DNA from: Yuukianura sp. NJ FZ-2021
Taxonomy: Eukaryota
Length of the DNA stretch: 64,000 bases
Reading direction: 5' to 3'
Assembly: GCA_046563655.1 (NCBI GenBank)
Contig: CM102290.1
Location: 9,548,001 to 9,612,000 of the forward strand
Numbering within the stretch: position 1 is the first letter of the stretch; every line of letters starts with the position of its first letter. The notes below the pieces were generated by a model. The model did not search any database. It saw only the letters and a list, made by a program, of their open reading frames with translations, and was not told the origin of the DNA. A program made the position numbers and the translations under genes. Positions 29,058 to 56,173 of the stretch are shown one piece after another.

Positions 29058-31857
29058 ACACGGAAAAAACCCGAGTTCCGGAGAGAGCGAGATGACCTAC
29101 CACTTCGAAGTGAGGATGATTTCGATTCCAGTGAAAGTTGGCTTCTGCTCATGTGCAGTATGCTAGTTACTGCCTTGGCTCTTGGTGTCCTCCACTCATG
29201 CGCATTTCTAGGGGACTTTGGAGCAAAGGACCTCGACTTGACCATAGGTCAAATGGCTCTCATGTCAACGGTCATGTACGCCATGTTCTGCTTCGTAAGT
29301 TCACAATACCCATCATTATTTTTGGAATGCGTTTTTCCTAATTTGGAATACTGAGTGATTAGAGTGAAGGAATTGAAGTCGTAGGTTTGTAAAATAAAAC
29401 AAATGACTTTTTTGTTTTTGAAATATTAGACATCTCCATTGTGTTCTGTTTTGACAAAATCTTGGACTCCTCGTCTAACTATAACTACTGGATTTTTAAT
29501 GGGATTTTTTGGCCTCGTGCTCATGTCATTCCAAGGACACAAATTTCTGCACCTCATTGGATGTTTGTTTCTTGGACCTGGATGTGCCTTGGTACAAACA
29601 GCAGCAGGTTGTTGCATTGTGTGAGTTTTTCCAAAAACTGGTAAAATGGAAACAGAATTTGACAAATTTTAGTTTTAATTTTTCAGGGACATGTTCAAAG
29701 CCAAAATTTCAATAGCCTTGTTTTTCCTGTCTCTAAGTTCGCCAATTGGAACTTTGCTTTTCGTGCCTTTCTCGTACTACATTGGAATCAACGTAAGCAT
29801 TTTTTTGACCGTCCCGATCTAAAATTCCTTACAGTCATATATAAGTTGAGAAATTTTTTTGTTAGACTTTGTTTAAATACAAGTGGATGATGCTGACCTA
29901 CGCCATGTTCTTCCTAACTGCAATTTCAATGTCCAAGAAATTCCCTCGAACAATACATATTGAGGGACATCAAGATTCAATCAGGGCAGTTGAAGTAGCC
30001 TATCACATCAAACGATGTCTCAGAGCAGCCAGGGCAAGCAAAACAAAAGGCTTTTCTCCACCAACGCCACCTTTGGACGAAGACGATGTCGACGCCGAAG
30101 TCGCCCGTGCCAAGAAAAAAAAAGTTATGCGAGAGCTTACATGTAAGATCAGGAAACGGTAATGGCCAAACCCCTTAAGAAAGTATAGCGATTCGGCTGA
30201 AACTTTTACCACTTATTAGGGGTGGTATGAAGGCCGTTTGACCAAATTTTCAGCCTTTTACGACCTGTAGGCGATGTCACGATGAATTTGAGGTCAAAGG
30301 TCACCACTGCCAAAGGTCCTTAATGGCAGCACAATATACATTTTCTGAATCCGGGAATCAAGGGCTTTCCAACGCTGTATCACTTGCATGGGACCATCAT
30401 AAGGTCAACGTGGTGAACTTTGACCTAAAATTTCTCGTGACCTGAGTATGAAGCTGAAAATTTGGTCAACTGACCTTCATATCACCCCTAATAAGTGGTA
30501 AAAATTTCAGCCGGATCGCTCCGAATATACTTTGTTACAGGGTTTGACCCATACTATTTTCAGAATTACTAACTTTTTGATGGAGTTTGCAAAGGCAAAG
30601 GTCAAGGGCTCTCTTTTTTTTCCAAAGGCACTTGTGCTTGCTTCGTGGATGTTGGAGTTTTGAAGGATGCAAGGTTTTGTCTGTGGATGGTCGTGGCCTT
30701 CAGCGCAATGCTCACCTTCTACGTTCCGCATGTCTGTTTTGTGACGTTGGTTCGATTTGAACTTGGATACGGTTACCGCCAAGCCCTAGTTTACGTCTGT
30801 GCTTTTTCTCTGGGATGTGTTCTTGGCAGAACCATAGCTTTCTTTGGTGATGACTTTAGCTTCATGTCTTGCAGAACAATGTTTCAGGCCGGACTTTTAG
30901 GTAAAACGTTAAAAAACTTAAAAAAACAACTAAATTATAAACAACTAAAAATGTGACTTCCAGGGACTGCAATTATATACTTTACGATACATAAGGCGGA
31001 AACTTGGGGCTGGATGCTGGCAGTTCACGTAGGACTTGGAATTTCTGAAGGCTTTCTGGTGATTCTGATTCCACGCTTGACCTTACACATTTTCCCACGA
31101 AAGTACTTGGCCAGCGTCTGGCGCATACTGTTACCGACGCATGGAGTCGCAGTACTCATCGGGCCATTTCTCATGGTTATGGCGAGGTTAGCCTGTTGAA
31201 TTTTTGCCGTCTAAAAATATATTGTTTGCTGGATTTACATTTGGTTCCAATTTCAGGAACGCCAATGAAGGTGAAATTTTTCTGGCTTGCGTTTTGGTAG
31301 GAGTGGTTCAAATTGTTGCGGTGTTGCTTTCCATGATACTGTCAGAACATCGTCCTAAACCTAAAACCAAAACATCTAACGGAGCTAAATTCAATCTGGA
31401 ACGTCGTTCACCTTCACCAAGTGCAACTACAATCGAAGTTCAGCCTGCTCCTAGCGGCAGTTCTCCACCAAATCCTGCCTATCCCGCGTCCGAAGTTGCG
31501 GAGAAACATGATGAACGTCAGACTCCGAGCGATGGACGAAACACACAAAGGCCCAACATGCCTACCATGGCAGTGACCTCTAAAGCACCAGCCACACCAA
31601 AACCTTTGGCTCCAGGCAATTCCGCTAGGCCAAAAGCACCGAAACCAAACTCTGCAGTAACCTTAGCCAAAGATACGCCAAGTCGAAATCCCTACGCCAG
31701 ACGGGACACGCCGCGACCTGTGTTCGACGCCAGCGATGGTCCAACGGCTCCAGTCATTGTTCCAGTACTAGTACATAGCGTTATTAGAGAACCACGGAAT
31801 AACCCAGGCGAATTTCAAAGTCCAGAACCATACAGTGCGGGATCGAAGAATCCATGA
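29058..31857 (+). CDS. Divergent major facilitator transporter, monocarboxylate transporter (SLC16)-like, with a Pro/Ser-rich C-terminal tail; 5' end unresolved
   Basis: Multiple hydrophobic exons. DSSESWLLLMCS resembles the MCT TM1 entry motif and GVLKDARFCLW...FYVPH resembles MCT TM7. A charged central loop lies between them. Intron 30143-30627 is phase-consistent. Confidence 0.65.
30159..30554. mobile_element. MITE/foldback element in an intron of the transporter gene
   Basis: Long imperfect TIR: left CGATTCGGCTGAAACTTTTACCACTTATTAGGGGTGGTATGAAGG versus right CCTTCATATCACCCCTAATAAGTGGTAAAAATTTCAGCCGGATCG. Similarity extends outward to ~30159 and ~30554 and inward to the GGTCAAAG motifs. 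Confidence 0.85.
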
Positions 31858-32796
31858 TACTGTGCCACACATTACCATCAATAAGGGTTTCAAAATTTGT
31901 CTAAATACAAATATTTTACGTTATGAATCAAAGTAAACTTTAAATGAGAGTCATAAAGTTAAGAATTCTTAACACAATAAAACGTCGTGCGAATTTTTTT
32001 TAGTAAACACAGAGCATTAGTAAGAATGGTTGACTTTATAGCAATATCGATTGAATTATTGGATTCAAGTGAATATTAATATTTGATTGATAATTATGAA
32101 GGACTAGATCACTCGTATAAAAGACTTAGATTTTCCTTTCATTGCCTATTAATTACAATTTTTTTATTGCATTTGTATACGTATAAACTGATTGTAATTA
32201 AAAATCAGTCTAGGGAATGCTATTTTTCAGACGCTTCTTATTGTTCCGGTTCGTTGGCGCGATGGCGCGAATACAAAGCTTATGAAATTCAAGTTTAAAT
32301 TGAGCGTGTATTTCGGGCGCGCGCTTGTTTATCACAAAGTGTTTGAATTAAAACGTAATTCAAACGGCTAATATTTTTTCCATCCAGGACAAAGGAACAC
32401 GACTCGTATTACACGAAGGACAAGGGACAACGTGCTAGGGAATACACCTTCTATTTGGATTAGTTTAATTAAAATTGTCGGGAATCATTCGTCGTTCTTG
32501 TTTACGAGTCGCAACTTGCGACTAGTTATTAGACTAGTTTCTTACTAATTTACAGTGTCTACGGGTTGGCAGAACAAGACAAATCGAATTAACTACGGTG
32601 AGTGTACGTGTACTAACTAATGTTGATTTAATTGACGTCGTATCTGGTATGTAATTAACTAGCTGCAGCACCTCGTACCTGTGTGTGTGGTAGCGGTTAT
32701 AATAGTAAAGATATGTAGAGAGGTAATGAACTTTATTTTTATGATTAATTTCTGTGCCTTTCTCAGAAATTCGGGAACCAAGAAGATTTTTTCGCA

Positions 32797-33663
32797 ATGA
32801 GTTCATCTAGCCGAGGATACGGGGACCATATCGGGTACCTTCCCGGCATCAACGATGTCATTATCTGTCCTTATAACACGTCTCACGTTGTTGGAACGTC
32901 GAGGATGCAACGTCATCTGATCAGCTGTCGTCAGGTAAAGGCTTAATTAGTGTTTTCAATTCAATTTAAATAGCTCGCATGTCTTAGCTATGAAGGAGTA
33001 GAGTTAAAATTGACGACCTTCTAATGATTTTTATATAGAAAAATCCAGAGAAGGCTGCTTCGATCACAATTTGTTCGTATAATCAATCTCATCATGTTCC
33101 TGCTGACGACATGACTGCTCATCTTTCCATTTGTCGGGATTTTTTGGCTCACAAGTTTCAAAACTTGATTCGAAGTAAGGGCACTCTAGTTCGATTCAAC
33201 TTTAATTAACTTAGTGGACTGGAATGAAAGGAAGAATGACTGGTATTTAATTTAGCCTGAACTTTATCCTCACCCAATAGCTACCCCGCGACCTAAGGTG
33301 GAGGAACCTGAAGAGCTAAAGGAGAAGCACCGAAGTGATCACGAAGAAATTCGTCACCAAATGCGCAAAATGGAACACCAGGCAGCATACTTTGAAGACG
33401 CTGACGACGGGTTGGATGACGTTTCTCTCAGTGGATTTTCCATCAGTGACAGCGTTTTCGAGGAACCCCAGGCTCCTCCAATCCCGGAAAGTGTGGCGAT
33501 CCAAAGGAGTGTCGACGGAGAAATTTGGATTGAGCACATGGGAGAAGGTTACCAAGGACCAGGTCAAAGCAATAAGGCGACGGAAATTCACGTCCCTGCT
33601 CCTCACATTAAACTCCCTGAATGTGACCAGGAAGAAATTGACAGTAAGTTCGATTGTGCCTGA
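32797..33663 (+). CDS. GTSF1/Asterix-like protein: two CHHC (U11-48K-type) zinc fingers plus an acidic tail, 218 aa. Exons 32797-32934, 33039-33174, 33281-33663
   Basis: CPYNTSHVVGTSRMQRHLISC and CSYNQSHHVPADDMTAHLSIC, each C-x5-H-x9-H-x3-C; junctions are phase-consistent. Confidence 0.85.
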
Positions 33664-34058
33664 AAAAATATCGTTTCTATTTTCCGTAGCTTTTAATTCT
33701 CAAAAAACGTTCTCATTTTTAGACTGGACCTAAACGTTTTCCATCCATCTGATTATACCTATGTATGTAATACACTACAGCCTACAGCAGACGCTAATAA
33801 GTACTTCACAGTTAAGACTGAAAAGAAAATGGACTTCCAGCTACTATTCTTAAATAGTAACACTATTAAATACTACTGACATAAATCTTTTTTAAATAAA
33901 CTACGTCGTCTGTCTGTCTGAACTAAAGAGACACTTCAATCGTGAATCATTTAAAAAATAAGTTAGCGGGGGTTTCTAACTAATAAGTCAAGCATGAAAA
34001 TACTTCTCCCATTCCTTCAAAGTTAAGTTCACTTTGGAACGTTTAAAAACGAAACTTT

Positions 34059-34852
34059 CTAAAGATCGATTAACGCATTTTCCTTAGCCACAGAGAGTTG
34101 AACTTGTGCTGATTTTCCAGGTAGCTGATTGTCACGAGATTTTGACCACCTTGCTTCTTGATCGCGAAGGATTTTAGCACCGAATTCCTTGTGAAGATGT
34201 TCAAAGGTCTTCCGTCCATTACTCCGAACGTTTTTAACACTTCTGCTTCTTGGTGGTGGTGTCGGTATATGGTGATGACTGGAACTGGAGGATGTATTCG
34301 GTCGAGACAAATCTTGGCCCCTGTAGCTATGAACGGATGGTAAACCCAGACTCGTACCGTCAACTGTGTCCAGGATAATACATTGTTAGTTTTGAGTTGA
34401 AGGAAGGTTAACACTAAATTAATTTTACGTTGAGTCTTACAAGTATGAACTGAAGACGATGAATTGAGCTCATCAAGCTGTCTTTGAAGTTCTGCTGCCA
34501 TAAACTTAATGTAGTCGTAGTTAGCACATGCCAATGCTTTCATCCACTGTTCCATTGATTCGTGTGATTCTGCGCTAAGAAAATATGATCGAGCTGGGAA
34601 TAGAATTTTGAAGCAAAAATGTTCATCCATTTCACTTTCTGCAAGTTCAATAGTACTTCCTTCAAGAATTATAACGCCGGCAGGTTCTCGATCTGATTTT
34701 TTCTCAAAGTAAAAGAGGAGATTTCCCTTCAAGACGAACCATCGTTTTGAGTAAACTTTCTGCCCGTCGCCTTTTTTCATCAGATATCCTTCACGATCAA
34801 CTTGACTCCCTGATGTGGCGAAGGCTGCCAAATTTTTCTCGTTGATTTTCAT
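34059..34852 (-). CDS. PHETA1: Sesquipedalian / PHETA (IPIP27, FAM109) PH-domain endocytic adaptor, 238 aa. Exons 34852-34441, 34363-34059
   Basis: MKINEKNL start; PH domain REGYLMKKG...KRWFVLKGNLLFYF...WMKAL; coiled coil; C-terminal F&H motif FEHLHKEFG (OCRL-binding motif of this family). Confidence 0.9.
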
Positions 34853-35661
34853 GTCGAATTGCCTGATCCGTTGGGCTTTAAGAACTCCTGAATTACCAGA
34901 ATCGTTTAGTAAAGTTAATACACATATTTAGTAGTAGATATCGTGTGGTCATTAACGACTAATGCAGACCTTGGGAACTTAATTTTCTTAGGAGAGTTTT
35001 GACGAAGCAGAAAAGCACACATTCATCCACGGATGTCGCCCAATCCACGCTTGATTGTCATCACCTCTGGTCTACAATGCAAACTATGACATCCTCGGGT
35101 AACTGTTTATAATCAAACAAAACAAGAGGTAAACAGTAAATTAATACGAGCATGCTTAAGCGTTGCGAATAAACTCACTACAAGGTGCCGTCCTGTTCGT
35201 TTGTCGTCGCCGAATACCTAGGGGGCTGAATTAGTTATTGTTTTGAACCTCCTAGTTAAATTAAATCGTTGTAAACAGTGGAGTAATACCCGTCATTCGT
35301 AACTCCACTCGAACACGTAAATCCAATTCCTTTAAAATTAAAACAAAAACAAGCCACAAAATTTACCTCTGCTGAGAATTACACTGCACTGGCTGGGCGG
35401 GCACTAATGGTCACCTGTTCCTGTTATAAATGTCATTTTACAAAAATTGAATTTGCCGCTCATATCAAGGTGAACTCAAAACAAACTGGGAGTGGGGGAC
35501 GGGAGAGTTATGTTGGAGCTTACGTTGTTCCAAAAAATCTCTTCTCTATGTACATGTCTTACAAAATTAATAACACTTGTTTTATTTGATACAATTTATT
35601 GTAATTGTCTCAAAATTGAATAATTAGTTATTTTGATTAATTTAGTTTGCAGGCAATCCAT

Positions 35662-35702
35662 CCGGAAGTGAGACTGTCGTCAAGTGCCGCGCGTTGCGCA
35701 TG
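35662..35702. promoter_or_regulatory. Candidate bidirectional promoter core between Sesquipedalian and PBDC1 (ETS-type CCGGAAGTG and NRF1-like TGCGCATG)
   Basis: Motifs at 35662-35670 and 35695-35702 in a local GC-rich patch between two divergent genes. Confidence 0.3.
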
Positions 35703-35914
35703 GGTGTCCATTTGGAGATAACTGTGGTTTTCTCCCATAGTTAACTTATGGGACTTTCACCATATTTTATCTGTTTAGTGTTTTAGTTGAATGTGAATTT
35801 TACTTTATTCATTTTCGTTGAGTTTGATATTAATTGCGTAATCGTTTTTGGCATATTAATTAAAGCGGTAATAAGTTAGTGTCATTAGTTCCAGAAGTAA
35901 TCGACGTGTACAAC

Positions 35915-36787
35915 ATGTCAGTGTCCGGGGGACCTCAAATGGTAAAATAGTATTTACCTAGTAGCAAAGTCCCTCATTTAATTTCAAATTCCATTTTATG
36001 CTACTTACCTCAGGGTAATCGATTTTGGTGCGTTTTAGGATGTTGGAGGAATGTACCATGGAGCCCATTTACTTACACGCCCAGCAGATGAGTATGAAAA
36101 TGACGTAAGAAATTAACGAAGTTTATAATCCTGTCTTAATTCGATTGTTGACCAATTGCATTGTAACTGTTGTTCGTTGTCCATTTTCAGGGAACAGTGG
36201 AGGCTCTTTGGGTTCGTCAAGCGTGTCAACATGCCGATGTGTACTATAACGTAAGACAAGATGCGCCACTCAATTGATAATTGAATTATAAAATTTATTG
36301 GGAAATGAAAGCTAAATTGACTCCTCGGTTTTGTTTTGCCAGCTTATTACCACTGTGAATCCGAATTACCTTAGACTTACACCAGACGACGACAGGATAT
36401 TCAATGCTTTCATGAAATGCTTCCCAAAGCAAAATCTGTTTGTTATAACTGAGGAGGATTTGAAGTCTGACAGTAACAAAGTTGTACGTTTAGAATTTTT
36501 ATGTAAACATAAAAAATCCAAATCTTTTTCTAAATTATGTTTTCTCATATCACTTTGTGGACTATTAGAAATGGAGAGCCTTCTGCGAAGACTTCAAGGA
36601 CATAGAAGACTACAGTTTCGGCACTTTGCTTCGCCTAAATGTGACTGGAGATTTTTCGGAAGACAATACTATCCTTGTCACTCGAATCCAATTTCTGGCC
36701 ATAGAGATTGCTCGTAATCGTTCCGGATGTAACAACATCGTTTGGGCTCGACACGCTAGAAAGAATCCAGACATAGCCGATTCATGA
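35915..36787 (+). CDS. PBDC1: Polysaccharide biosynthesis domain-containing protein 1, 5 coding exons
   Basis: Spliced peptide includes ADEYEND, HADVYYNLI, LRLTPDDDRI, KWRAFCEDF, DYSFGTLLR and RIQFLAIEIARNR. Confidence 0.92.
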
Positions 36788-37170
36788 CATAAGGAGGGAC
36801 GTATTACTACTAAGAAGAATACTAATTTCCAGAAACGGCTCAAGAATGGATTCGATGACGACTTCCAGTTTTTGCATATGGTGGAACAAGTTTTGAAGGG
36901 CATGAAAAGTTACATGGAACGAAAGGGAACTAACCTAACCTAAGAATTAACAGCCATTTACACTAATCATTTCTCATCAGCATCCATTTATTGCTCTATA
37001 AAGGTACAAATATTAAACAAGAAATTAAATACTTTGCTCTAATATATTGTACGCACCAGTATCATGTAAATCTTAACATTGCACTGAATTCAGTATCTGT
37101 TCTGGAAGTTATTGAGGTTGTTTGTTGAGCATTCTTCTAAAGCAGCTTTTCAATTGATGCTTGGTTTGGC

Positions 37171-39825
37171 TTAGACAATCGTGGGTTTGACTGGACCCCA
37201 GGCTCCGTCAACTGCATCCATCCCAAGATCATCATTGGTTTCATTCAACGGCGGCGGAGCTGCGGCCTGCCTATTCAAACAAAAAACCATTTTGGAAAAG
37301 TCATCGTTTTAGAAAGTTTGTAGAAACAATGTTTGAGTTTTCGAATTCTGTCTAAAAACTTACGACGAAGACGCGACACACTTTGGTGGCAGTTGCGGTG
37401 GTTGCACCTTAGTGCCCTTCCGTGCATCGTTTTCGTCCAGTAAGTAGTCAGTCTCTTCCGGTGTCAAGAGCCACGGTTCACGCGAGACCACTTCAAGCAA
37501 CATGCGCAGTTCGATATCTTGGAGCTTCTTGATAGCCACGGACGGATGGATTTCCATTCCACTTTTGGTAAATCGAAAAGTGTTGACTCTACGATGCAAT
37601 TCTCGACTGTCTGGCAAAAAGTCCCATTGGTATTCGTTTTCTTCGGTCGCATTCTTGGGGGGTTCCAAAACTAAGTTCCAGTCTCGCTCTTCAAACAATT
37701 TGGCCGCTGCTCCAGGTCCTTTCTTTGGAGCTGGACCAGGAGTTGCATCAAAATCGAAAAAGTCCATGTTTCGCTGCAGTTCACGTAGAGGGCGAGGAGG
37801 TGGTGGTCCACCATGACATTGGCCAGGACCTTCATCGTCACGACTACCAGAACTCAGATTGTCAGATTGGGCAGAACTCAGAGCAGGAGAGACTTGAGAT
37901 GAGCTTGTTGCAGTGCCTGTTTCAACGTATAATACAAAATTATACACTCAAGTTGGAAAATTCAGAACGGCTAAATTTTTAGTAAAGGAGAAACTTAGAA
38001 GATCTAAAAGTTGCGAAGAAAGTTCTGAAAAGTTATCGACAAATCGTTAGGTTACTTTGTGCTCGTGAGCTTCGCTTAGTGCTGTACTTCTCGACATCTT
38101 CAGTCTCAAATGGCTTGATGACCTCATTCTGGACAGGACCAGCCAGAGAGCGTAAAGAGGCCGAACTTGCTAGGAACGGAAAATAAGTATTTGAAGACAA
38201 GGTTGGAACTGGAGGCGGGAAGTGAGGAACGTAGTTTCTGCCACTACTTTTGTTCTCTAAAAATAAAGCAACAGAAGCGAAAACTTAAACACAACTTCGG
38301 TTTGGAATTTAAGCTAAACACTTATTTAGAGTGATACCTAATCGAACATATGTTGCGATAACTTACCCATTGCATTAATATCCAACTCACGTGAGCTAGA
38401 CATTCTAGGTCGGAGCATAATATCACAATAGTTAGACTCATGCGTACTGCGCGGAAAACTTTTACGTGGATTGGCATCGTCTTGTACTTGAAGAGTAATT
38501 TCACTGCTGTAAGAGTGCTTTGGAGGAAGCGGAAGAGCAATTTTAGACGACGTAAAGCGTGGTTCTGGAATGCGTGAGAGGGTGAAGTCCATTAGATCTC
38601 GATCTCCTCGGGTACTATTGGCATGTTGCGGGGAATCTTCGACGCGCCATCGTATTTCAGGAGGCTGGTATGAGCTGTTGCTGAACCATGGGAGTGAGTC
38701 TTCAATTGCAGGATCTTCAAAGATCCGACGAGATGGAACACGAACTCCACCCGGAAGGACGGTCGACGTATGATCGTGAAATGATTTCGTTCTCTCCAAA
38801 CTGCCCGATCGCCTGGATAACACCAAACAAAGTTTATGTCAATCAAGCTGTTTTATGTTATTTTCGACTGTCACTGTGAAGTGAGGTTAAGTAGCAACTT
38901 TATCTCACCTCTTAGGAGATGGCACAGTCCAGATGGGTACTGGATCAACCTTGGCCAGTTTCTTCAAATCTGAAAACAGAAGGTAAGGGTTAAACTATTG
39001 ATATTTAGTTTTAATTGATTATGCCATAAATTCACCTTGGCTTGATGATGAACTTGACGGGCCAGCAGATACAACTGCAGTAGCACTACTTTTCGCTGCC
39101 GCTCCTTCCAACAATGAATTGGCAGCTGCTGCTTCTGCTTGCCGCCGAAGTTCGGAATCCCTGACAGTAACAGTAAGCGATCTCCCACGGACTGAAGTGG
39201 TGGACCCACTTGACGAAAACGAATTATCGATGGTTGACAAGCACTTAGCCACATTTTGCTTTATTTGCTCCTGTTTCTCGAGTACAGGCGCAATCGTGCT
39301 AGCGGTAGAGTGTCCTACCAACTCTGATTCCTAGAAACAAACCAAGGGTTTAAAGATATAACTCATGTAGCAACCAATTAATCCAAATTCAACGCGACAT
39401 AAATTATAATTATAAGTTAAGGTTTTACCTTCTGTACAATTTCTTTGAGTTCATTAATCTTGATAGTACTCTGCCGCAGTAGATGCAACAGTTTCGTCCC
39501 CATAATGTCAACTTTGGCTGGAGACGACGAAGAAGAGGAAGTCTTTTGGTCCATGACTAAAACAAGTTACGATAAATCGGAATTCGGATTGCGAAAAATG
39601 AAAAAGGAACCGCTGATTAGAAGTTAATCAGCAATGATTGTCTCAAAAACAGTTAAAAGGATAGGATAGGAAAGGTTCTACACTAGGTAAGCTAATCGTT
39701 GAACTAATTAACTCGTGATTAACTAGCTCTAAAGTTAATCTAAAAACCCGCTGCCATGGCCTTCTGGCCTCCTTCGAGACAACCAATTTCGTGACGAGCG
39801 AGTCGACGATGAGAAGAAGACTGAT
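37171..39825 (-). CDS. Unidentified multi-exon, largely low-complexity (Ser/Pro-rich) protein; may extend 5' to ~40220
   Basis: Several same-strand ORFs are bounded by GT/AG sites (~39554-39429, 39019-39321, 38338-38826, 37360-37947, last exon ending TAA at 37171). I recognise no domain. Confidence 0.6.
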
Positions 39826-41221
39826 CTAAAAAAAAAGGAGGAAGGAAAAAGAGGAAAAACGGAAAGATTAAAAAAAAGATGAAAAAACAGGAAACACAGT
39901 TTCGGCCCACCACACCGATTTTAGTATGCTCTGTATTGTATCTATCTAGGAAAAAATACCCGAGAAAAACACAAGTGTGGTATCATGATACACGTTAATT
40001 GACCGAGATACTCAGACACCGAATGCCTAGTTTAGTAACCATTTTTACTATTAAAAATTATGTTAAAGGAAACAGCAATGATTACTTTTGATACTATTCA
40101 TGTCCATAAGTTTCAACGCGTGTAATTCTGCTCTTCCACTCATCTTAGACAATTCACACACTGTAACGTCATCGTACTTAGCGTAGATTCCATTAACATT
40201 AATCGGAACCTTTCTAGACAAACGTTATGGCTTGGTATAAGCACTTCAACAATTACGGTATCGTCTGCGCTAAGTTAGGTATCCTCGATTCGATGCTAAA
40301 CTGTGTAACCTTATCCGGCGCGGAGTTTAGCATTCAGGGTAGTAAACTCCGTGAGGTGGGCAGAAACTGAAAAATGGCTATGATATCTTGAGTTTTGCAT
40401 TTAATTTCCAAAAATCAGTTGACTTACAGCTCAATTGCTATTGCATAATGCATATTCAAACGAGAAAGAAAATAGTAGGTATAAGAAATAACTGTCGTCA
40501 TTGTAGCCTGCATACGTTGCCACTAAACATAATTCTTTAGCCGTTTTGTGGCTGCATTGGATGGCTACTCTTTGGTGGTAACGCGTGCTGCCATCGTCTA
40601 GGTCATAGTAGCATAATGAACGTTAGGGCAAAGGGGTGACATAATTGACGCAAAGTTTATGCAACTATTTAGGCCGCGAAGGCAATTATGTCCGGTGGTT
40701 GTTATAGTTACCTTTCGTCCTTACGTCAACCAGACAAATCAATTGCAATCACATTTGGCGATTGGCAAATGACAATATGGCATAAACAGCGTATGTCGTG
40801 TGTCGTGAAATTAAATGTATTGTTTATTAGATTAATTTATATATTTCTATTTAGAATTCATAGTTTATACTTTCTGAATAAATTTAATGAATGACTTGAA
40901 CGTAATTTAGATTATATTCAATTAGTCTTAGAATGCCCATATAATAAAGTTAAGGGTGCCATATTGAGGATGTTCAATGGGTAGCTGCTTGCGCAACTCG
41001 ATCTCGTGCTTGCGAAGACTCCAAAATCGGCAAACTTCTTTTCTATTCTTTTCCGTTCTTTGATGATTCAGTAAACGTCCACTTTTATCCTAATAAGGTG
41101 TGTACGTTTTTGATTCAATTACTAATTGACTAATTCGAGCACTTAGAGCAAGATACTACTGTTCAGCATCAGTATCCTATCGCAGTCAAACCAGTCGAGT
41201 ATATAAAACCAAGTATTCAAA

Positions 41222-43521
41222 ATGGTAAGTGTTTTAAGTGTTTAACAAATGTTATAAGATGCATGCATTTGTATTCCTTTTGCGACTTCTTCACCGATTC
41301 ATAGCCTCAACTTGAGGCCCTCAAGACAATCCGTAGTAAGTAATATGCGGTGTTTCTGGGTTTTAGGCGTCACTCAACCCTGTTCGAATCATGAAGCATG
41401 AAGCGGATTTGGAGAAGGCTGAAACGGCTCGAATGAGCAGTTTTGTGGGAGCCATTGCCGTTGGTGACCTCGTCAAATCTACACTAGGACCAAAGGGAAT
41501 GGACAAGATTCTGGTTGGCAGAGGCAGAAATGATGGAAAGGTAAGTTGGTCATGTACAAATTAACTCCGACTTTGTTACTGACCCGGTATTCGCTAATGA
41601 ATAGTGTTTTGTTTGAATAGATTGAAGTTACCAATGATGGTGCCACCATTTTGAGAAGTATTGGTGTTGATAACCCGGCAGCGAAGATTCTTGTTGACAT
41701 TTCTAAGACACAGGATTCCGAAGTTGGAGATGGGACGACCTCAGTCACCGTCTTAGCTTCGGAGCTTCTGCGAGAGGGTGAAAAATTAATTGAGAAGAAG
41801 ATTCATCCGCAGACAATTGTTGCTGGATGGAGGAAAGCTGCAACGGCTGCTCTCGAGTGTCTCGAAAGTGCTGCCAACGATAACAGGTACACGATAAACT
41901 AATTTCTTTTGCTACAGGCGTGAATGATTTTATAACACTTTTTGTGGCAATTTTCAGTGCTAACGAAGATTTGTTTCGTGAGGATTTACTCAACATTGCT
42001 CGTACGACATTGAGCTCCAAAATCCTGAATCAGCACAAGGAGCATTTCTCCAAACTGGCCGTAGATGCTGTGATGAGACTCAAAGGTTCAGGAAACTTGG
42101 CCGCCATTCAAATCATCAAGAAACAAGGTGGAACTCTGTTGGACTCTTTTCTGGACGAAGGATTTCTTCTGGACAAGAAAGTGGGAGTGAACCAACCGAA
42201 GAGGATCGAGAAGGCTAGGATCTTGGTGGCTAACACTCCAATGGACACTGACAAAATCAAAGTATTTGGTTCTCGTGTCAATGTCGATTCAACGGACAAA
42301 ATTGCCGAAATTGAAATGGCAGAGAAAGAGAAAATGAAGGAGAAAGTTGCTAAAATCGTTAAGCACAACATTAACGTTTTCATCAATCGGTGAGTTGTAC
42401 ATCAAAGTACAGATTTCGATTATCTTCTTATTTAAAGTAGTTGACCAAACACTAATTACTTTCAGACAATTGATCTACAACTACCCTGAACAACTGTTCG
42501 CTGATGCTGGAATCATGGCAATTGAACATGCCGATTTTGATGGAATTGAGCGTCTGGCACTTGTTACAGGTGGAGAAATTGTGTCCACTTTTGATACTCC
42601 CGGTAAAGTGAAGATCGGTACTTGCGATCTCATCGAAGAGGTAATCATTTCACTACTATTCACTAATTGCTAAAGTAACTAATTAATTACTAGGCTATGT
42701 TAGTGTACTTAACATTGTAATTAATCTTGTTTCTTGCAGGTAATGATTGGAGAAGAGAAGGTGTTGAAGTTTAGTGGAGTTGCTGTTGGCGAAGCTTGTA
42801 CGATTATCATTCGTGGAGCAACCGCCCAAATCATTGACGAAGCAGAACGATCCCTCCATGACGCACTTTGTGTCCTCAATGCAACAGTCAAAGAAACCAG
42901 AACTGTCTATGGAGGAGGTAACTTAATTAGTTTTAACTATGAAGATTGACTTAACGTAGTTAGTTATAATATTTAAATTCAATATTATCTTAGGCTGTAG
43001 TGAGACACTCATGGCCCTTCGAGTATCGGAGTTGGCTCTGGAGACTCCTGGAAAGGAAGCAGTGGCTATGGAGTCATTTGCAAAGGCTCTTCTCGTAAGT
43101 TTTGTTATTATCTTGTACTATATTGCTAAGCTATGTTTTATTTGGCTTTACTTATTTGTTGCGTCTGCTCTTTCAGATGTTGCCGACGATTATCGCTGAT
43201 AATGCTGGTTATGACTCGGCAGAACTCGTGAGCCAGCTGAGAGCTAAGCATGCGAAATCAGAACGCACCTTTGGATTGAGTAAGTAAAACTTTTACATTG
43301 ATGACATTTGGATGGGTGTTAATTGTGTTATGTAATTGTTTTTTTTAGATATGGACCTAGGCAAGGTGGCTTGCATGAGGGAACTTGGGATCACCGAGTC
43401 GTTTGCTGTGAAGCGACGAGTTGTTTTTGCTGCCGCTGAAGCAGCCGAAATGATCATGCGAGTTGACAACATCATCCGAGCAGCTCCGCGTCAACGAAAT
43501 CCAGACAGAAGTCGCTGCTGA
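41222..43521 (+). CDS. CCT2: T-complex protein 1 subunit beta (chaperonin CCT2)
   Basis: ATG alone in the first coding exon, then [10 protein letters not shown]...[42 protein letters not shown], and C-terminal [12 protein letters not shown]. Confidence 0.98.
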
Positions 43522-44709
43522 TTTTGTTGTTGCTTTTCTGAAATCAATCTTCCGCTCCACTAATAAGTTTCTAAAATATTTCAAACTGAATTCAGAAGTT
43601 CTCACTTTCTACAACATCAATTGCTTAAGCTTACGAGTTACTAAGAATTAAAATAACTAATTCATTCCTTCAGACACAAAGTGACGTATTCACTTAGATA
43701 TGTCACTGGGAGGTGAAATTCAAGTTATTTCTTCAGCTTAATGCTGCGAAGAACTAAAGATTGGCACAGTATTTGAGTTGGCATTATATCCACATCAATC
43801 GTGTCGAGTTTCGAGAACCTTACATTTCTCGCACATCGCCGTGGTTCAGACGTTACTAGTCAACTTTCTATCTTATCGTTGATTGACTACAAGTTGAAGT
43901 AATTGGTTAGCTTAACATAACGTAGCATAACCTAATTAAGTTATTGCATAGACTAATATCTGACGCATCATTTTCGTGTCTGGGAAGGAGTGGCTTAGGT
44001 TCGTAAGCTCCGCCTGGCTGAAATAGAGTTCATGGGAAAAATGTTAAATTTTCACGTTTTGTTGTATGCGGTGACAAATTCTTGATTGAAAGGCAACAGT
44101 TTCATGTAAAAGTTAAAACTGAAAAATAATCTTACTAAAAAATGCGGAATTAGTTTGCAAAAGTTGGGAAATATTTTGGATACTAAATTCACCATGTGGG
44201 CCTTTCCCTATGATGAGAAAGAGAATGATGAGTTGTTCATTTCACTTTCACTTGTCACAGTTTGTTTCAAAAACATCTCCGGGTTTTCTTCCGTCGTTTC
44301 TTCATCAATTAAATTGATCGAGAGGTAATTCGTACTCAATTAATCGTTGTACAAATAAACCTACGTGTGACTCTAATAGTCGGTTTTTTAGGCTGCTGCA
44401 GGATTGTTTGGATTTGGAACTCAGTCAACCATACGTTTTCGTACAACGGGAAGGTCAAAGGTCAAATTCATAATTTAGCAGGTACTGTCTATCTTCTTGT
44501 CCGTTTCTCTACTTGGTATATAAACTTGTGCAGTATAGTCGTAGTCGTGTTTAGGTTTTTCCCGCAAATCGAACTCATCTTTCGTTTTTCCAGTTTCGAA
44601 CTTGTTTGTAAGTTTTGAATTAATCGTTTCATTTTTTTAGACTGTGAAGCAGCAATCTTGTGCTGATATTTGTTTAGAAGCTTTCTGAGTTATTAGTGGG
44701 GCCAAGAAG

Positions 44710-47190
<2,481 letters not shown>

Positions 47191-47652: not shown

Positions 47653-50600
47653 TTACATCCGATGGTAACTGCCATCGTTTTGTTGTTTCTCCATTGATGA
47701 TCCAGAAGCGTCAATTCCAAAAGCAAGTGCGGAGTCAGACGTCAAGGGGTCAGGGGCCCTTGGACCCTCTGGGGTCACTCCTCCTGCCAACTTGTTGATC
47801 AAGACTTTTTGGTTTTTCATTCGAATGACAAGGAACACGACTCCACCGAGAGCAACGACCACAGCGATGAGACAAATCATGATGGTTGCTATCAAACCGA
47901 CTGAAGTGTGCTCTGGAAAAGGTCACAAAAAGGTCAAGGTAAAGCTATGGTCAGGGATCAACGTTCTTTGACTTTGATTTCACAGGTTGAGTAATACCTC
48001 ATGTTTTTTCGACTTTGCAAAAAATAGTGTCTTTCAAAGGCTATCGTAGTCATAACAGCACAGCCGAAATATTTAAATTTTAAGTATGAATTGGTACCAA
48101 TTTTTTGTTTTTTACTTTTTTCTTCTCCTTTTTTTTTGTCAGCGAGGTAGTAGTCAACCTGTCAAAGAAAATTCATTTTTTGTTGTCAATGAACCTTGGT
48201 CGGGAATGGTCAAGGTCAGAAAAGTTAAGTGAAGTGAAAAGACGACGGCGGATCACTTTTTCTGAAAATGACGTTGATGTTCAGGGTGTGAACGTGAGGA
48301 ATAAGAAATGCTAAGGAAAATGGTACAGGTCAAGAAAATTTGAGGAGGTCCAGGTCACTCACCACGAATGACGACCTTGAACGTTCTGGAGGTTGTTCCA
48401 GCCAAATTCTTAGCAATGCAAGTGTATTCTCCTTGCGTCTCGTACGAAACTCGAGTAATGTTGATTCTACTTATTGTTTTAACCGAAGTAGCATTCATCC
48501 ATGGGGTTGTGTAACGGTAAAACCTCTGTAATGGCAGAAATTTTCGAAGTAAATATCAAAAGAATCTCGTAATTCCTTGACCTTGACACTACCTTGTCAT
48601 TTTTTCTCCAGGAAATGACAGGGGCGGGGTCACCGGTGGCTTCACAGTCAAAAAATTTGTTTGTTTCGTTCACGTACCACTCCACCACAGTGGGGCTTGA
48701 TACCTCTGTACCAACAATAGCCGGTTTGGTTGGCACTGTAAACAAATTTTACAAATGTTAAGAAAATTCAAAACGTCTAAAAATTTGTGTTGAAATTTCA
48801 TGTTTTGAGAAGCGAACCTTGAACTTTGACCTCAATGGTTCGATGTTTCCACTCTGATGTGTTCCAAACAGGAGCGTAGCACCCAACTGTAGCCAAATTC
48901 ACATCGGCAGTCAGCAGGAGAGTAATGATGTTCCGTCGAAAACGTTGCGAAAACCTTCTGCCAGTTGTATTTCGCAAGGCCTCTGTCAAGGTCAAGCTTC
49001 AAACATCAAAATTCTGGAAAAATTTTAATGTTCCCAATTTTGGTGCCTGCCTGTACCTTTGACAGTAACTTTTGTGCCGTTAGCAAAGCCTACAACCCAT
49101 CGTGTCCCTTTGGAGAAGTAGTAGTCAGAAACTTGACACCCAAAGGTCACGTTTTGACCTTCGTAGATTTTGTCAGCGAATGTTCGTATAGCTATCATCT
49201 TGTCGGGATCTGCTTGTTTCCAACTGAAATCTAAAATAGAGGTGAAAACTTTTAGCTCAACGGTACAATTTTTTGAGCATTAAGACAGACTTTCAAAACA
49301 AAAGTCGTAAACTAAAATTTTTGCTAAACAAAGCTTTTAGGTCAAACTCCTCACAAGGGTCACTGAAGGACCGATTTCGGTTAAAGGCTCCGCCAAATTC
49401 GAACTGTGTTCCCATTGGGAAAAAATATTCCCGCACAATGTCAATTCCATCTCCGACGCATCTGAAAATGCCCGCAATTTGATTGCGTGACACCCTGATG
49501 TATGAGCATGTTCCGTTTCGTGTTGCAGTGTTTTCCAACTTTTTACAAAACACTTTTTAAAAATTTTATATGTAAAAATTAAAGTTATGTTGATTATGCT
49601 CTGTTTACTGACGTAGAGCAGTGCGTCTTTCCTATTTTTGCAGGACGTTGGATGGTCGCAGTTGAAATGCATCATCGTTGGCGCAATTGTGTCAGGTCGA
49701 CTGCAACAAAACAAGCGACCAGTAGATTTGTCAAAGCCAAATCGTGCAGGTCGCTTCACGACGTCACCAAATTCCATTGGGTTTGCTTCTGTAGTATAAA
49801 TTTGAAAAAAGTTATAAAGTTTTTTCGCAAAATTTTTTAATACAGTGTTTATGAAAACTGGTTTTTACCTGGACTTGTACTTGGAATGACGTAGACAGTA
49901 GCAGTGTCCTTCGAATCGGAATTTGCAACGCACCGATACGGTCCGAACGGATCTGGAAGGTTCGTCAAAGTAAAACCGCGTTTCGGATCATACGATATGG
50001 ACGCATTCGGTTTCATCTCGGTCCAAATCTCTCCGCCAAAATGAAAAAAGATAACCTAAATCTTAAGTTTTTTTTTTGAATTTTTTTTATAAAATTTCAA
50101 AATTTAAGTTTTACAAACAAAATACTGACTGTGGTGACGTTGACATATCCTTTGTAAAGCTTCACTTGAATGTCCGGTCTCGCCACGGTACAAACGACTA
50201 GCGATGTACTGTCCCTCACAAGCTATAAACGACCCTCTGGAAATGAGGAATTATGGCGGCGTGCCAAAAAAAGAGGTACACAAAAATGAAATTCGCCGTT
50301 TTTCAATAAAGTGGATTTCCCGCCACAAATTGTTCAAATTTTTTTTCTTTCAAAATATTGAACTGTATTTTCAAAATTTTGAACTTTTTTCAAAATTTTG
50401 AACTTTTTTCAAAATTTTGAACTTTTTTCAAAATTTTGAACTTTTTTCAAAATTTTGAACTTTTTTCAAAATTTTGAACTTTTTTCAAAATTTTGAACTT
50501 TTTTCAAAATTTTGAACTTTTTTCAAAATTTTTGAACTTTTTTCAAAATTCTCAACTTTTTTCAAAATTCTCAACTTTTTTCAAAATTCTCACCTTTTTT

Positions 50601-52676
50601 CAAAATTCTCAACTTTTTTCAAAATTCTCAACTTTTTTCAAAATTCTTAACTTTTTTCAAAATTCTCAACTTTTTTTCAAAATTTTCAACATTTTCCAAA
50701 ATTTCGAACTTTTTACAAATTTTTGACCATTTTCTCAAAATTTTGAACTTTTTCAAAATTTCGAACAGTTTCCAAAAGTTTTGAAAAAAGTTCAAAATTT
50801 TGAAGTTCGCAAGTTTAGAGAAATGTTCAAAATCTTGAAAAAAGTTCAAAATTTTGAAAAAAGTTCAAAATTTTGAAAAAAGTTCAAAATTTTGAAAAAA
50901 GTTCAAAATTTTGAAAATACAGTTCAATATTTTGAAAGAAAAAAAATTTGAACAATTTGTGGCGGGAAATCCACTTTAATGAAAAACGGCGAATTTCATT
51001 TTTGTGTACCTCTTTTTTTGGCAAGCCGCCATAATTCCTCATTTCCAGAGGGTCGTTTATAGCTTGTGAGGGACAGTATTGGTAGCCGGATCCAGAATGG
51101 CTTTAAATTCGTTTAAATTACAACTATATTTAAGCATAGCCTGAAATATTAGTTATAAATTCTCTTAATTGTTTTTATTTCAGACCTTACCAGTTGAGTT
51201 TAAGCCTTGCTGAACCAAGAATGGCGGAGACGTGGCTTCCCAGTACACGTACATACTGCGTTGGACAGACTTCGCCCCCACTTTTTGGCATGTGTAGTTC
51301 CCAGTGATTCCGTTGCTTGACCCCATTAAACGCAAGTCAGCAACGTACTCAAACGACGACGGGTCACTCAGGTCAACGGACTTGCGCGTTGTCGTGACGG
51401 TCACGTACCAGCGACCCCGTGACGATCGCTGAACAGCGTGCGACGGAAGCTACGCGGAACAAAACGTTGCAAAATTAAAAACTATAGTTCTTTTTTCTAT
51501 GTGCAGTTGCTGATTTGATTTTGAACGCCTGAATCCTAGAAAAATCTCAGCTTGAAATGAATCGGTTGCGAATCGCACCCGGAAATCAAAACGTTCTTCG
51601 CTCTTAATTTACATATTTTTTAACTTCTTCGAAATTTAATAACAATAGAATTTAATTTACGCATTTTTTAATCTCGCGAACGGAAAACGATAGACACCTA
51701 TTCTTTTCACGAGAAACTTTCAAAAAACATGACAAATTTTAACAAATATTGGAAATTCCAAAATCGAACATCAAGTTTTTCGTGAAATTTTGAAAAAAAA
51801 CCATGGATTTTTTCGAAATTTCGTCAAAATCTGAGGGTACCTTTTTATATTTTCTAAAAATACTCCTTATTTGTGTGAATTCAGGGGCGAAGAGTTTACC
51901 TTTCTATCGCTTTCCGTTCCCGAGTTATGAATTTTGAAAGTTTTTGAAAATTTAACCAAAATTTTGAAAAGTAGTAATGAAGTAATTTAAATTTCAAGAC
52001 CCTTAGAGATTTAAAGTTGGAAGATATAAATATAATAGAAGCAAAATTCCCTAATTTTGACTGTGTCTGGTTCATTTCAACCTAAGACGTTTTCATTGGT
52101 GACGCGTCAAAAATCAATTCAACAACACTGCACACTGAAAGAAATGAACCATAAAACTAAATTAAACGTTTCTTAAACATTTTGAATAGAGGTTAAACTT
52201 TAAACGTTTAAATTAAGGACCTTGAGAGGCCAATTGGCGCGACTTTCTTTCATAACTTGTAACGACTTGATTTTTTTTTAAGGTGAAAGGTCACGAGTCA
52301 GTTTGGTACCTGTGAGTGGTGAAACGCCCATTCAATGGGGTAGGAAGCATTACATGACAGAATTACTCCTGGAAATTAAGAAAAAATTAGGCTAAAGTTA
52401 AAATGAGCTTAAAATATTGAGTCAGGTTAAACCTTGGTTAAGATTTAAAAGTTAAGTTAAAACTAGGTTGCAATTTAAAATTGAGGTTAGTTTGGTTAGG
52501 TTAACCTTACCGTCGACAGTGCCTGGAATGACCAGCGTGTTTTCGTTAGTTCCAGGCCCCTTCGGTACTTCGACGCTCGAATCCCAGTTGAAGTCGCCAC
52601 TGGCTGTCCAGCTCGTAGGTCGAATCAGCGGCGGAGTCACGGCAGCAGAGGTCAACAGAAAAAGTAAAGTGGCCAT
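47653..52676 (-). CDS. PVR/VEGFR-ectodomain-like Ig-domain type I membrane protein without kinase domain (paralog A); exon 4 is interrupted by a transposon
   Basis: Signal peptide MATLLFLLTSAA; Ig domains (GNYTC, VCTVARPDIQVKL...YDPKRGF, CEATGDPAPVISWRK...GEYTCIAKN); TM LIATIMICLIAVVVALGGVVFLVI; ~57-aa tail then stop. All exons are phase-consistent once 50209-51078 is removed. Confidence 0.8.
50209..51076. mobile_element. 868-bp non-autonomous foldback/MITE with TA target-site duplication
   Basis: Arms CTGTCCCTCACAAGCTATAAACGACCCTCTGG... are reverse complements with 2 mismatches seen in the first ~165 bp; TA at 50207-50208 and 51077-51078. Confidence 0.95.
50372..50916. repeat. 19-bp tandem array (CAAAATTTTGAACTTTTTT)n inside the foldback; forward copies on the left, inverted copies on the right
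   Basis: Directly visible. Perfect copies lie near the arms; variants (CAAAATTCTCAACTTTTTT) and degenerate copies lie toward the centre (~50770). Confidence 0.95.
51673..51924. mobile_element. Inverted-repeat remnant (probable old MITE) in intron 2 of paralog A
   Basis: CTCGCGAACGGAAAACGATAGA (51673-51694) versus the reverse complement of 51903-51924: 20/22 identity. Confidence 0.5.
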
Positions 52677-53030
52677 TGCAGTTCCACCACTAAATTTGAA
52701 ATTCCGTCCAAAAGATTTCAAATTTTGGAACTGAAATTCTCAACTATTCGGGAACTAATTGACGGCACTTCTGGAGAACTCATCAAAAAATAGGAGAAAA
52801 TGACACAAGAGAATCTGAGGTTGGAATTCTTTTTGTGTGTAAAAAGAAAAACTAATTGCTTCCGCTTGCCGTTTTTATATGAAATTGAACAACTGAAATT
52901 TTGAACAATTGAAAATTTTATAACAATTGGAAATTGGAGACTTATTTTTAGAAAATGAACAAAATAAAACCGACATGCCACTGATCCGGAATCCATTTTT
53001 CTATATTTTGAATTTCGTGCATTTTTTGAA

Positions 53031-56000
53031 TCAAATGAGGTTGGCACTCAATTTGCTTGGATCCAAGGTAGAGTTGGTGTAGTCAGGCGATTCGTTTTCG
53101 GTATCGTGAAACGGTACCGGAACGGTATCTGGCAGTGGCTCGATTGGCGGTTCTGGTCGAATACTTCCGTCTTTGAAAGTTACCGCTGACGAAAGTTGGT
53201 TGATCACACGCTTCTCACTGCGGAGCTTCAAGGCCATGAAAACCACGCCCACCGCAAGTAGAAGTGACAAAGATACGCCTACCATTATAGCCACCGTTTG
53301 TTTCCAGGACGCGGGCTCTAAATTTGGAATTTTTTGGAAAATAAATAGATCAACATTCAATTTGAAAATGCATTCTGTGAATCTTTAGGAAAATGGGAAA
53401 CACTGACTGACCTACTACGTAAACGTGAATTTTTCGCGTGACGGAGCCGCCAACGTTTGACGCAGTGCAAATGTACGTTCCATTTGTTGCGTAACTCACG
53501 ATGTCAAAGCGAATGTTTTCCCGCGTGAAATTTCCCGTGGCATTCACTTCCTGTGTGTGGTTGACGTTCATATGGGTAGTATGCCACTAACAAAAATATA
53601 ACATAAAACGAATTTAATTTTATACATTAATATATTATAATGTGTTATTTATTTTTTATATTAATTTTACCCAGTCGTCAATTTTTGTCCAGCTGAACGT
53701 TGGAACTGGGACGCCGAAGGCAGAACAGCTAATTTCCTTACGTGTATCGTTCATCGTCCAAGTATAAGATTCCTCAAAAGTATCATTCAGTACTGGCCTG
53801 CTCGAAGCTGAAAACGACAAATTGAAAATTTTGAAAAAAAAAACTTTTGAAAATTTCGTCCGCCGAAGTTTCTTACCGTTGATGTAAAGTGGATACGGCT
53901 TATGAATATATTCCGTAGAATTCCAAACCTTATACACAGAAAAAGAATAGTTTGACCTTTGACCTTGACCAAACTGTTGCAGTTTATTTTAAATATTCTT
54001 ACAGGAGCAATACACATGACAGAGTCCAAGTCAACATGGGCAACAATTTTGAGGTAAGCGTTTGAATAATCATACTGATACTTTGGTGTTGGAGACACTT
54101 CAGAATCTATACAAAAAAATCCACCAGCTCAATGACCCTGACCCCGTGATGCTTTTAAAAAAGAAAAAGATGGAACTGACCTTTGACCTTGATCGTACCG
54201 TTCTTCCACTTGATGGCCCATCGTATTCCATTTGAAAAGTAGTACTCCGATACGTAGCAGTAAAAGTTCAGAGATTGACCATGGTACAGCGTAAGACTTG
54301 CTGGGTCCACTGATGTTGACCTCCGGTACCAGTAGTAGTCGCTCAGCCGTATCAACATCATTTCATGCGGGTCGATCTCAGACCAATCAAAATCTAGATA
54401 ACAACCCAACAACCAATCAAAATCTGTCACCATCAATAATTCACCGTTTGATCTCATGGCGTTACTTAAAAGGTCAAAGGTCACGCGTAACTACTTACAA
54501 GCATTAATCTTCTGTTGTTTCCGCGGTATCGACCAATCACGTAGTCCGAACACATATTGCCGGAAACTGTCGATTCCGTCGCCAACACAGTGTACGAGTC
54601 CTGCCGAGTGGACGTACAACCTCACTGTCGTACATCCCCTCCGTGACTTCTTCCTTAGAAAAGTGTTGTAGAGGTCCTGCGTAGAAAGTTATATAAAACT
54701 TGGTCATTTTTATGAAAGTTGTCAGTAGAAAAGAATTTTACATGCACAGGCTCACCGGAGCGACAAATTTCTTTCTGAATTCACACATGGCAGGATGGTT
54801 ACAGTAGTAATGCATCATTACTGGAGAACGACGCGAACTTGAGCAGCATTTGACCTTGGAAGTGGCCGGGTCAAAGGTTATGGTGGCATTCGACTTCTGC
54901 GGACGTAACCAACCACTGGATGGATCAGACTCTAAAACCAAAATTCAAATTTTCAAAAAAAAAAAAAAACATTACTTTTTAAGAGTTTCAAAAATACCAT
55001 TTTGAAGTTTGACCTCAACGTTGATAAATTCTTGAGCAGGGTTGGGTCCACTGGGACGACAAGTGTAGTTGCCTTTCAGAAATGGAACTTTGTCTAAAAT
55101 TATTCCGCGACTACGCTGAAATCTCACTGAACTGTTGTACGCAACGAATTCCGATGTCTAGAAATTTCGAAATTTTGCATATTTTTGTCAGTTTCAAAAA
55201 CTTTTTTAAGTTCCCCTTACATTTGCAGCACCACTTTTGCTTAGGACAGGATTTTTGAAATCGGGATCAGAACTGACGCAAGGAAGAACAGCGATATTGT
55301 CCTCCGCATAGACCGTGAGTGACTCATTAGTTTGGATGAATTTTTGATGAGAATCGTCTAAAATAAAATTTTGAAAAATTTTAATTTCTCGGGGTTTTTG
55401 TCAAAAGAGGTCGAACATCACACCTTGCCAAAAAATGTAAACACTTGATTGGAGGCTAGTCCTGGCAGCGTGTGCGCAAGTGTAGTTGCCTGTCAAGCGG
55501 TTGTAGTTCCCGTAAATGTTGATTGTCGCCATGTACTCGTAGGTTCGGAGGTCATAAATATTTTTTGCCGTTCTGCGTGTGCGTAGTGACAACATCCAGG
55601 AGGCGTGCCCTATAAACTGAAATTACAACGGAAAAGTTAATCTGGGTACACACTGAATTTGAAACATTGTTTCTAAATTTCAAAATTCGAAATTCCAAGA
55701 TATGAAAAAAGCCAGGTTATTTTTGTTATAAATATTTTTTTGGTGTCCAAACTCGTGAAAAATTTCGCATTTTCCCATAAACGTTCAAAAATATTGCTCA
55801 AACTTTCGGTAGTAAGTCGGTGTAATTTTGCCCGAATTCCTGGAAATGTCCAAGGTTTGCGGTGCCTTACACTGTCCGAATTTTTTGGATTTGTCAAATT
55901 TTTGAAAACGTACACTTTTTTGCTGAAATTTTGACTTACATGGGCGTTATGGAATACCCACGTAATTGGGTACGGCGCAGTACACACGAGGACACAGCTA

Positions 56001-56173
56001 CTCATTCCCTTTGGAACAGCGTAACTCCTCTCACCGATTTTCGTAACGTTTTGACTATTTGAGCTGTAACCGTACTGAAATTCATTTGAACTCATAAATT
56101 GAATTATTGGCGGAGACTGGAGTTCAGCAGCAGTCAACCCTACCACCAGCAAAACCAACCACACCGCCCCCAT
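53031..56173 (-). CDS. PVR/VEGFR-ectodomain-like Ig-domain type I membrane protein without kinase domain (paralog B), apparently intact
   Basis: Signal peptide MGAVWLVLLVVGLTAA; Ig domains collinear with paralog A (CTAPYPITW, TGNYTC, CCS...CNHPAMC, CVGDGID, YYFSNGIRW, CSAFGVPVPTFSWTK, NGTYICTASN); TM VAIMVGVSLSLLLAVGVVFMAL; ~65-aa tail then stop. Confidence 0.82.

Follow-up and report, generated by a model that had tools for sequence, protein, structure and literature searches.

DNA transposons that lie in exons and leave the function of their host genes partly intact have long been known, and Tc1 duplicates a TA dinucleotide on insertion. According to the available part of Zhao et al. (2025; PMC12779559), SOS splicing takes exonic copies of Tc1, Tc3 and Tc4 out of 90-100% of the host mRNAs of Caenorhabditis elegans; base-pairing of inverted repeats of any sequence is necessary and sufficient for it and no GU-AG sites are required, the excision being dependent on AKAP17A, CAAP1 and RTCB; non-autonomous elements are also substrates, and the process works in human cells. 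Introners, as described in excerpts of PMC9860276, are families with many copies spliced as introns. Foldback-type comparators, likewise taken from parts of the respective articles, are Drosophila FB and Galileo (P superfamily; PMC3573991, PMC3688188) and Tm1, a Mutator/Foldback element of root-knot nematodes (PMC3169594). Here we analyzed an 868-bp element lying in exon 3 of an Ig-like membrane-protein gene (gene A), within a window of 64,000 nucleotides from Yuukianura sp. NJ FZ-2021 (contig CM102290.1 of assembly GCA_046563655.1); all positions are those of this window. The locus resembles the exonic Tc1, Tc3 and Tc4 alleles of C. elegans (e.g., Tc1::rsd-3, in the excerpted text of PMC12779559) in that an element with base-pairing ends has landed in a protein-coding exon, where it introduces premature stops.

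The explanation that we favor, with a probability of about 0.75, is a recent, gene-breaking insertion of a foldback element, not fixed, at a TA site in the third exon of an Ig-like gene from a springtail. The element would have inserted at a TA within this exon and duplicated it; the assembled haplotype would be the occupied one, the unoccupied site being also present in DNA of the same sample, and the insertion would break the reading frame at the DNA level through a stop six codons into the element. The initial annotation had described an 868-bp element flanked by TA on both sides, and it was recovered as such (Table 1). Deletion of the element plus one TA, predicted to mend the exon, did restore the frame, the minus-strand reading becoming ..KAILDPATNTSLVVCTVARPDIQVKLYKGYVNVTT with AILDPATN/TSLVVC rejoined; exon 3 opens with the two bases that finish the last codon of exon 2 and closes on a codon boundary. 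The TAA foreseen for the unspliced reading was also found, and the truncated product would measure about 155 amino acids by the 11-exon model instead of the previously proposed 175 or so. P0001, an ENA protein 84-86% identical to gene A, reads NATAVLNPSTNVAVIPCTVARPD over exon 3 with a length equal to that of the element-free exon, and across the insertion site it reads ..QGQNATAVLNPSTNVAVIPCTVARPDILVALFK.., again equal in length to the empty-site reading of gene A. By this comparison, the element sits at a position where the coding sequence is conserved.

The locus was present in five DNA runs, none of them recorded as RNA, and contigs of four were compared with the window. X1 and X3 are runs of one sample, possibly the source of the assembly, and X4 comes from another organism (organism B) at low depth. 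The contig evidence rests on the records listed, with 5254 further records outside them, and coverage was interrupted in some runs (for instance, 49836-50007 was uncovered in all four). One contig in X1 and one in X3 joined 50205 directly to 51076, skipping 870 nt with three ambiguous letters (GTA) at the joint; the depth of these contigs was 118 in X1 (flanks around 174) and 90.5 in X3 (flanks 103-224). The X3 contig (record 19, 239 nt) covered 50081-50205 and then directly 51076-51189, and extended beyond exon 3 into the introns at either end, thus reflecting genomic DNA and not spliced RNA. It differed from the window at 5 of its 239 letters, which pointed to another haplotype (less likely to a very recent duplicate) rather than to somatic loss of the element from the assembled haplotype. 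The empty site was a clean single TA without footprint, as fits a site that was never occupied. We take the empty-site contig to be an allele of the same locus, so that we regard the insertion as recent and unfixed, either segregating or heterozygous. In X4, whose depth is low, no record among those listed lay at the insertion site. The near identity of the arms and the recency of the insertion claimed earlier agreed with only two mismatches in the first 242 nt of the arms and with the empty site in the same sample.

Table 1. Positions of the element, of gene A and of the sites discussed in the text (a slash marks an exon/intron border).
Feature	Position	Strand	Remarks
Non-autonomous foldback-type element, 868 bp	50209..51076	.	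Open reading frames are low-complexity repeat frames only
TA target-site duplication, left copy	50207..50208	.	
TA target-site duplication, right copy	51077..51078	.	
Left arm, unique terminal domain, ~139 nt	50209..50347	+	Several variant contigs over the domain in reads
Right arm, unique terminal domain	50938..51076	-	
19-bp tandem array, 23.8 units	50348..50804	+	
Shorter array of the same 19-bp unit, opposite orientation	50773..50937	-	5 exact v1 units
Gene A, Ig-like membrane-protein gene, 11 exons	47653..52676	-	Own exon model
Gene A, exons 1-6	52676-52511, 51449-51191, 51100-50130, 50028-49869, 49788-49613, 49538-49355	-	
Gene A, exons 7-11	49230-49057, 48982-48818, 48735-48593, 48525-48363, 47912-47653	-	
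Gene A, exon 3, carrying the element	51100-50130	-	101 nt once the element is removed
TAA stop, 6 codons into the element (..ATNTVPHKL-stop)	51059-51057	-	Unspliced reading
TGA, first stop of the as-is reading from ATG, codon 81	51375-51373	-	
Exon 2 G-run, GGGG as read on the minus strand, probable +1 frameshift	51415..51418	-	Homologue alignment
Candidate donor GT (ACT/GTCCCT)	51073..51074	-	0.7 bits, rank 32 of 43 GTs in exon 3 plus element
Candidate acceptor AG (GTTTATAG/C)	50223..50224	-	8.2 bits, rank 3 of 44 AGs
Competing stronger acceptor (CATTTCCAG/A)	50237..50238	-	10.0 bits, 14 nt upstream of the candidate

A HMMER search with exon 2 of gene A gave 21 proteins at E <= 0.001, and the named homologues were all from springtails, namely "Ig-like domain-containing protein" in Orchesella dallaii (two contig neighbours) and Allacma fusca, and "Tyrosine-protein kinase-like otk" in Orchesella cincta; this indicated that the animal is a springtail. 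A word-index protein search with the same exon, at "near" lengths, returned no match. Pfam I-set/Ig matches were located in exons 9 and 10, and the last exon contained a hydrophobic stretch resembling a membrane span. A diverged paralogue (gene B, around 53030-56173, minus strand) lies directly upstream of gene A, and a comparable pair of homologues (P0003 and P0021) occurs on one contig of O. dallaii, mirrored by genes A and B. To judge from these homologies, the element lies in a springtail gene for an Ig-like membrane protein, which forms half of a tandem pair. As a separate observation, P0001 runs exon 2 straight into exon 3 (..NATAVLNPS..), yet its reading continues across introns 3 and 4; either the relative from which P0001 derives lacks intron 2 (51101-51190) or the P0001 contig is partly spliced RNA, so that a presence/absence difference of intron 2 between close relatives is possible.

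The earlier statement that the gene carried no other lesion did not hold. The exons of gene A in the 11-exon model sum to 2821 nt, which minus 870 leaves 1951 nt, that is, 1 mod 3, and a +1 frameshift is likely in exon 2. At its strong donor (GACG/GTAAGG), exon 1 leaves off after the first base of a codon; read in this frame, exon 2 begins ASVARCSAIVTG and then stops, and only the next frame is open over its remainder (RWYVTVTTTRK...GNYTCQK...). Exon 1 aligned with the springtail homologues to its end (..LVIPGTVD vs ..IVVPSSVRG). A C-x7-W motif (CNASYPxxW) was found in all seven homologues covering the region, and gene A fits it only with a frame change at the G-run of exon 2, giving C-SAIVT-X-R-W. 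This run was covered with zero gaps by contigs of X1 (51160-51579) and X3 (51160-51428), so the extra base would be present also in the majority, empty-site haplotype. It is likely, on the homologue alignment, that the +1 frameshift in the G-run is a true lesion. The alignment of gene A with paralogue B, considered by itself, supported the frameshift weakly (score of 47, with shuffles reaching 45 at most), and it is the springtail homologues that carry the case. Two mini-introns that would mend exon 2 were rejected, one of 28 nt because it is far below gene A's own introns (67-1061 nt) and one of 61 nt because the W-bearing strand would be lost.

This affects what the insertion may have done. 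A switch to a secreted form, one of the outcomes offered by the initial annotation, was rejected since the as-is reading gets no further than the stop at codon 81, and a product made of "signal peptide plus first Ig domain" is unlikely given the exon 2 frameshift. With a stop that far ahead of the later exon junctions, the transcript would be exposed to nonsense-mediated decay. Of the original set of alternatives, a real young transposon insertion allele stood, with the empty site and the equal length of P0001 in its favor, whereas the secreted form and the notion of a single lesion did not. This copy of gene A would probably have been frameshifted already (+1, exon 2) on both haplotypes, and the element may thus have struck, as a second lesion, a tandem paralogue that had recently been disabled.

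The element itself belongs among the non-autonomous cut-and-paste DNA transposons, and within these to the foldback type with long hairpin arms. Its inverted arms (50207-50474 and 50811-51078) measured 268 nt each and were 97% complementary in a repeat search, the two mismatches mentioned above coming from an ungapped comparison; the unique domain together with TA comprised 144 nt and was 98.6% identical to the opposite end. Two versions of the 19-bp unit prevailed in the longer array, v1 (TTCAAAATTTTGAACTTTT, eight exact copies) and v2 (TTCAAAATTCTCAACTTTT, five exact copies), and the core of the unit, TTCAAAATTTTGAA, is a perfect 14-nt palindrome. Long inverted arms made up largely of short tandem repeats and able to form a hairpin are the structural features of foldback elements. 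The ends read CTGTCCCTCACAAGCTATAAACGACC... inward on both strands, and termini CTGTCCCTCACAAGC... were confined within the window to the two ends of the element, where the 26-nt terminus had its two matches against a chance expectation of 0. A 3-bp GTA duplication was rejected because the inverted termini would go out of register by one base. The 2-bp TA duplication, expected of Tc1/mariner-like elements along with terminal inverted repeats and a partner of matching termini that carries a DDE/D transposase, argues for placement in this group and sets the element apart from FB and Galileo proper; the superfamily is thus most likely the Tc1/mariner-like group duplicating TA. Sensitive blastn revealed no further copy of the arms within the 64-kb window, exact-match scans of metagenome contigs with 26-nt and 20-nt terminus patterns gave 0 loci each, and the window had no Rfam match at gathering thresholds.

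Depths were calculated as contig means, so the copy numbers derived from them are rough. The bin 50180-50351, which falls in the unique arm domain, reached a depth of 1527.6 in X1 (around 174 for single-copy sequence) and of 31.6 in X4 (around 3.3), that is, about nine times the single-copy value in both runs. A single arm position was covered by up to eight different X1 contigs with letters differing from the window. The arms are multi-copy in the reads. Absence of coding capacity and multiple copies, the latter in rough number, are the features by which miniature inverted-repeat transposable elements (MITEs) and other non-autonomous elements are recognized. In bins of the 19-bp array the depth rose to 30,000-46,000 in X1, which indicated that the unit is abundant and satellite-like; across 50348-50937 it was far more abundant in reads than the unique arms of the element, and in organism B it adjoins unrelated sequence (loose ends at 50746-50826). 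These data suggest a satellite-like repeat common to, or derived from, the transposon.

Whether transcripts could lose the element was considered along two routes. Intron gain in progress, in which the spliceosome would use the GT at 51074/51073 and the AG (TTTATAG) at 50224/50223, takes support from the fact that transposons supplying splice sites are known as Introners (in the excerpts of PMC9860276). The arithmetic put forward earlier for this pair was right: the sites bound 852 nt, whose removal keeps the frame and adds TLVRDS. Splice sites were scored with a matrix built from gene A's own 10 introns, a small training set. The acceptor is good, but the donor, already called weak in the initial annotation, scored 0.7 bits vs 5.1-10.7 for the 10 real donors of the gene (0.8-9.2 on leaving one out). 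Only two stop-free, frame-keeping GT..AG pairs at least 40 nt apart were found, both of them with this 0.7-bit donor because the stop comes six codons into the element, and the 51074/50223 pair is the only one that also retains the rest of the exon. The stronger acceptor 14 nt upstream, combined with the candidate donor, would leave 32 extra nt and an out-of-frame product. In addition, the RNA of the element is predicted to fold into one long hairpin (-504.5 kcal/mol vs -185 ± 6 for shuffles; z = -50) with both candidate sites paired in its stem, and the insertion is not fixed. On these scores the spliceosome would not be expected to remove the element, and intron gain is very improbable. The second route, SOS splicing, in which the paired arms would trigger spliceosome-independent excision from the mRNA near the arm ends followed by RTCB-type ligation, is unlikely but carries more weight. 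By the exon model and the predicted hairpin, the element offers what this process acts on, inverted repeats that base-pair within an mRNA exon: it is exonic, and its near-perfect hairpin has 268-nt arms starting at TA. The element would then be missing from part of the transcripts, in some cases with the frame kept, and the allele would be leaky, which is compatible with a frame broken at the DNA level. Against this, the available part of PMC12779559 describes demonstrations in a nematode and in human cells only, with 0 occurrences of Drosophila or insect, and presents the excision as imprecise and mostly out of frame; furthermore, the upstream frameshift in gene A would make any rescue moot. 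Removal by SOS splicing nevertheless seems more plausible than the weak GT/AG route. It is improbable that the insertion is tolerated in this arthropod thanks to the hairpin rather than the GT/AG pair, through an SOS-type system; if true, the locus would provide a naturally segregating allele on which such a system could be tested beyond nematodes and human cells.

An artefact, with a repeat misplaced into the exon during assembly, was also weighed. Contigs lacking the element, which the initial annotation had named as a sign of misassembly, do occur in the same sample, and the filled junctions are unbridged among the records listed. However, a misjoin would not give a complete element with both termini and a perfect duplication of the empty site's single TA, features that argue for polymorphism; moreover, 5 of the 239 flanking letters of the empty haplotype differ from the window, which means that there are two haplotypes. 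An artefact is therefore the most remote of the explanations considered.

Several points weigh against the young insertion in an already frameshifted gene as we propose it. No contig among those listed spans the filled junctions, so that the occupied allele is represented by the assembly window alone; the evidence for the empty site comes from one sample only (X1 and X3), and the empty-site contig could derive from a very recent duplicate locus instead of an allele. The 570 codons that follow the break contain no stop, so gene A is not an old pseudogene and any inactivation would be recent. The frameshift reading depends on our own exon model, and a weak donor at a codon boundary of exon 1 (GAA/GTACCG) would keep the frame open, at the cost of the B-strand cysteine of the first Ig domain. 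Gene A itself uses poor donors, such as GTTCGC. Finally, as regards the superfamily, no transposase-bearing partner turned up in the window or in the metagenome contigs scanned, and the element terminates in CTGT, unlike the CAGT of many Tc1-like elements.

Other repeats were observed in the introns of gene A. Intron 1 contains a very high-copy short element (51673-51953) whose inverted ends match imperfectly (78% complementarity between 51673-51708 and 51889-51924); its bin 51728-51899 reached a depth of around 368,000 vs around 174 for single-copy sequence in X1 and was also high in organism B. Intron 10 holds a repeat at 47944-48287 with inverted ends (47969-48000 and 48144-48175, 81% complementary) and a depth of around 20,000 vs around 174 in X1. 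Elsewhere in the window, a long exon at 41884-42393 (+) has the look of a CCT/TCP-1 chaperonin subunit and an exon at 17193-17750 (+) that of a ligand-gated chloride channel, both by eye only.

The insertion appears ordinary, and nothing indicates that the element is becoming an intron. Hairpin transposons that segregate in exons are a commonplace sign that transposons have been active recently, and with its probable upstream frameshift gene A has less at stake functionally; the pair of occupied and empty alleles would have a modest value for probing the removal of inverted-repeat transposons at the RNA level in an arthropod.

Compared with the systems described at the outset, the locus combines features of several of them. 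Its arms of 268 nt with internal tandem repeats are unlike Tc1, which has 54-nt inverted terminal repeats according to the available part of PMC12779559. It also departs from the Tc1 alleles of C. elegans in its springtail host and in an element without a transposase gene, and removal at the RNA level is here only conceivable. With Introners, as presented in parts of PMC9860276 and PMC12130899, it shares a non-autonomous element with terminal inverted repeats placed in coding sequence, with GT and AG near its ends; in contrast to those families, a single copy was examined here, which is not fixed and has a weak candidate donor. As in foldback elements, each arm consists of a unique terminal domain plus short tandem repeats, the repeat numbers are unequal and there is little or no coding capacity. 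The target duplication is 9 bp in FB and 7 bp in Galileo, whereas it is the 2-bp TA here; the likeness to FB and Galileo is one of structure. Hairpin or long-terminal-repeat non-autonomous derivatives of Tc1/mariner elements and MITEs resemble it in the TA duplication, the lack of an open reading frame, the multiple copies and the strong hairpin; from typical MITEs it is set apart by its larger size (868 bp) and by the satellite-like array in its arms, whose 19-bp unit has a palindromic core of 14 nt.

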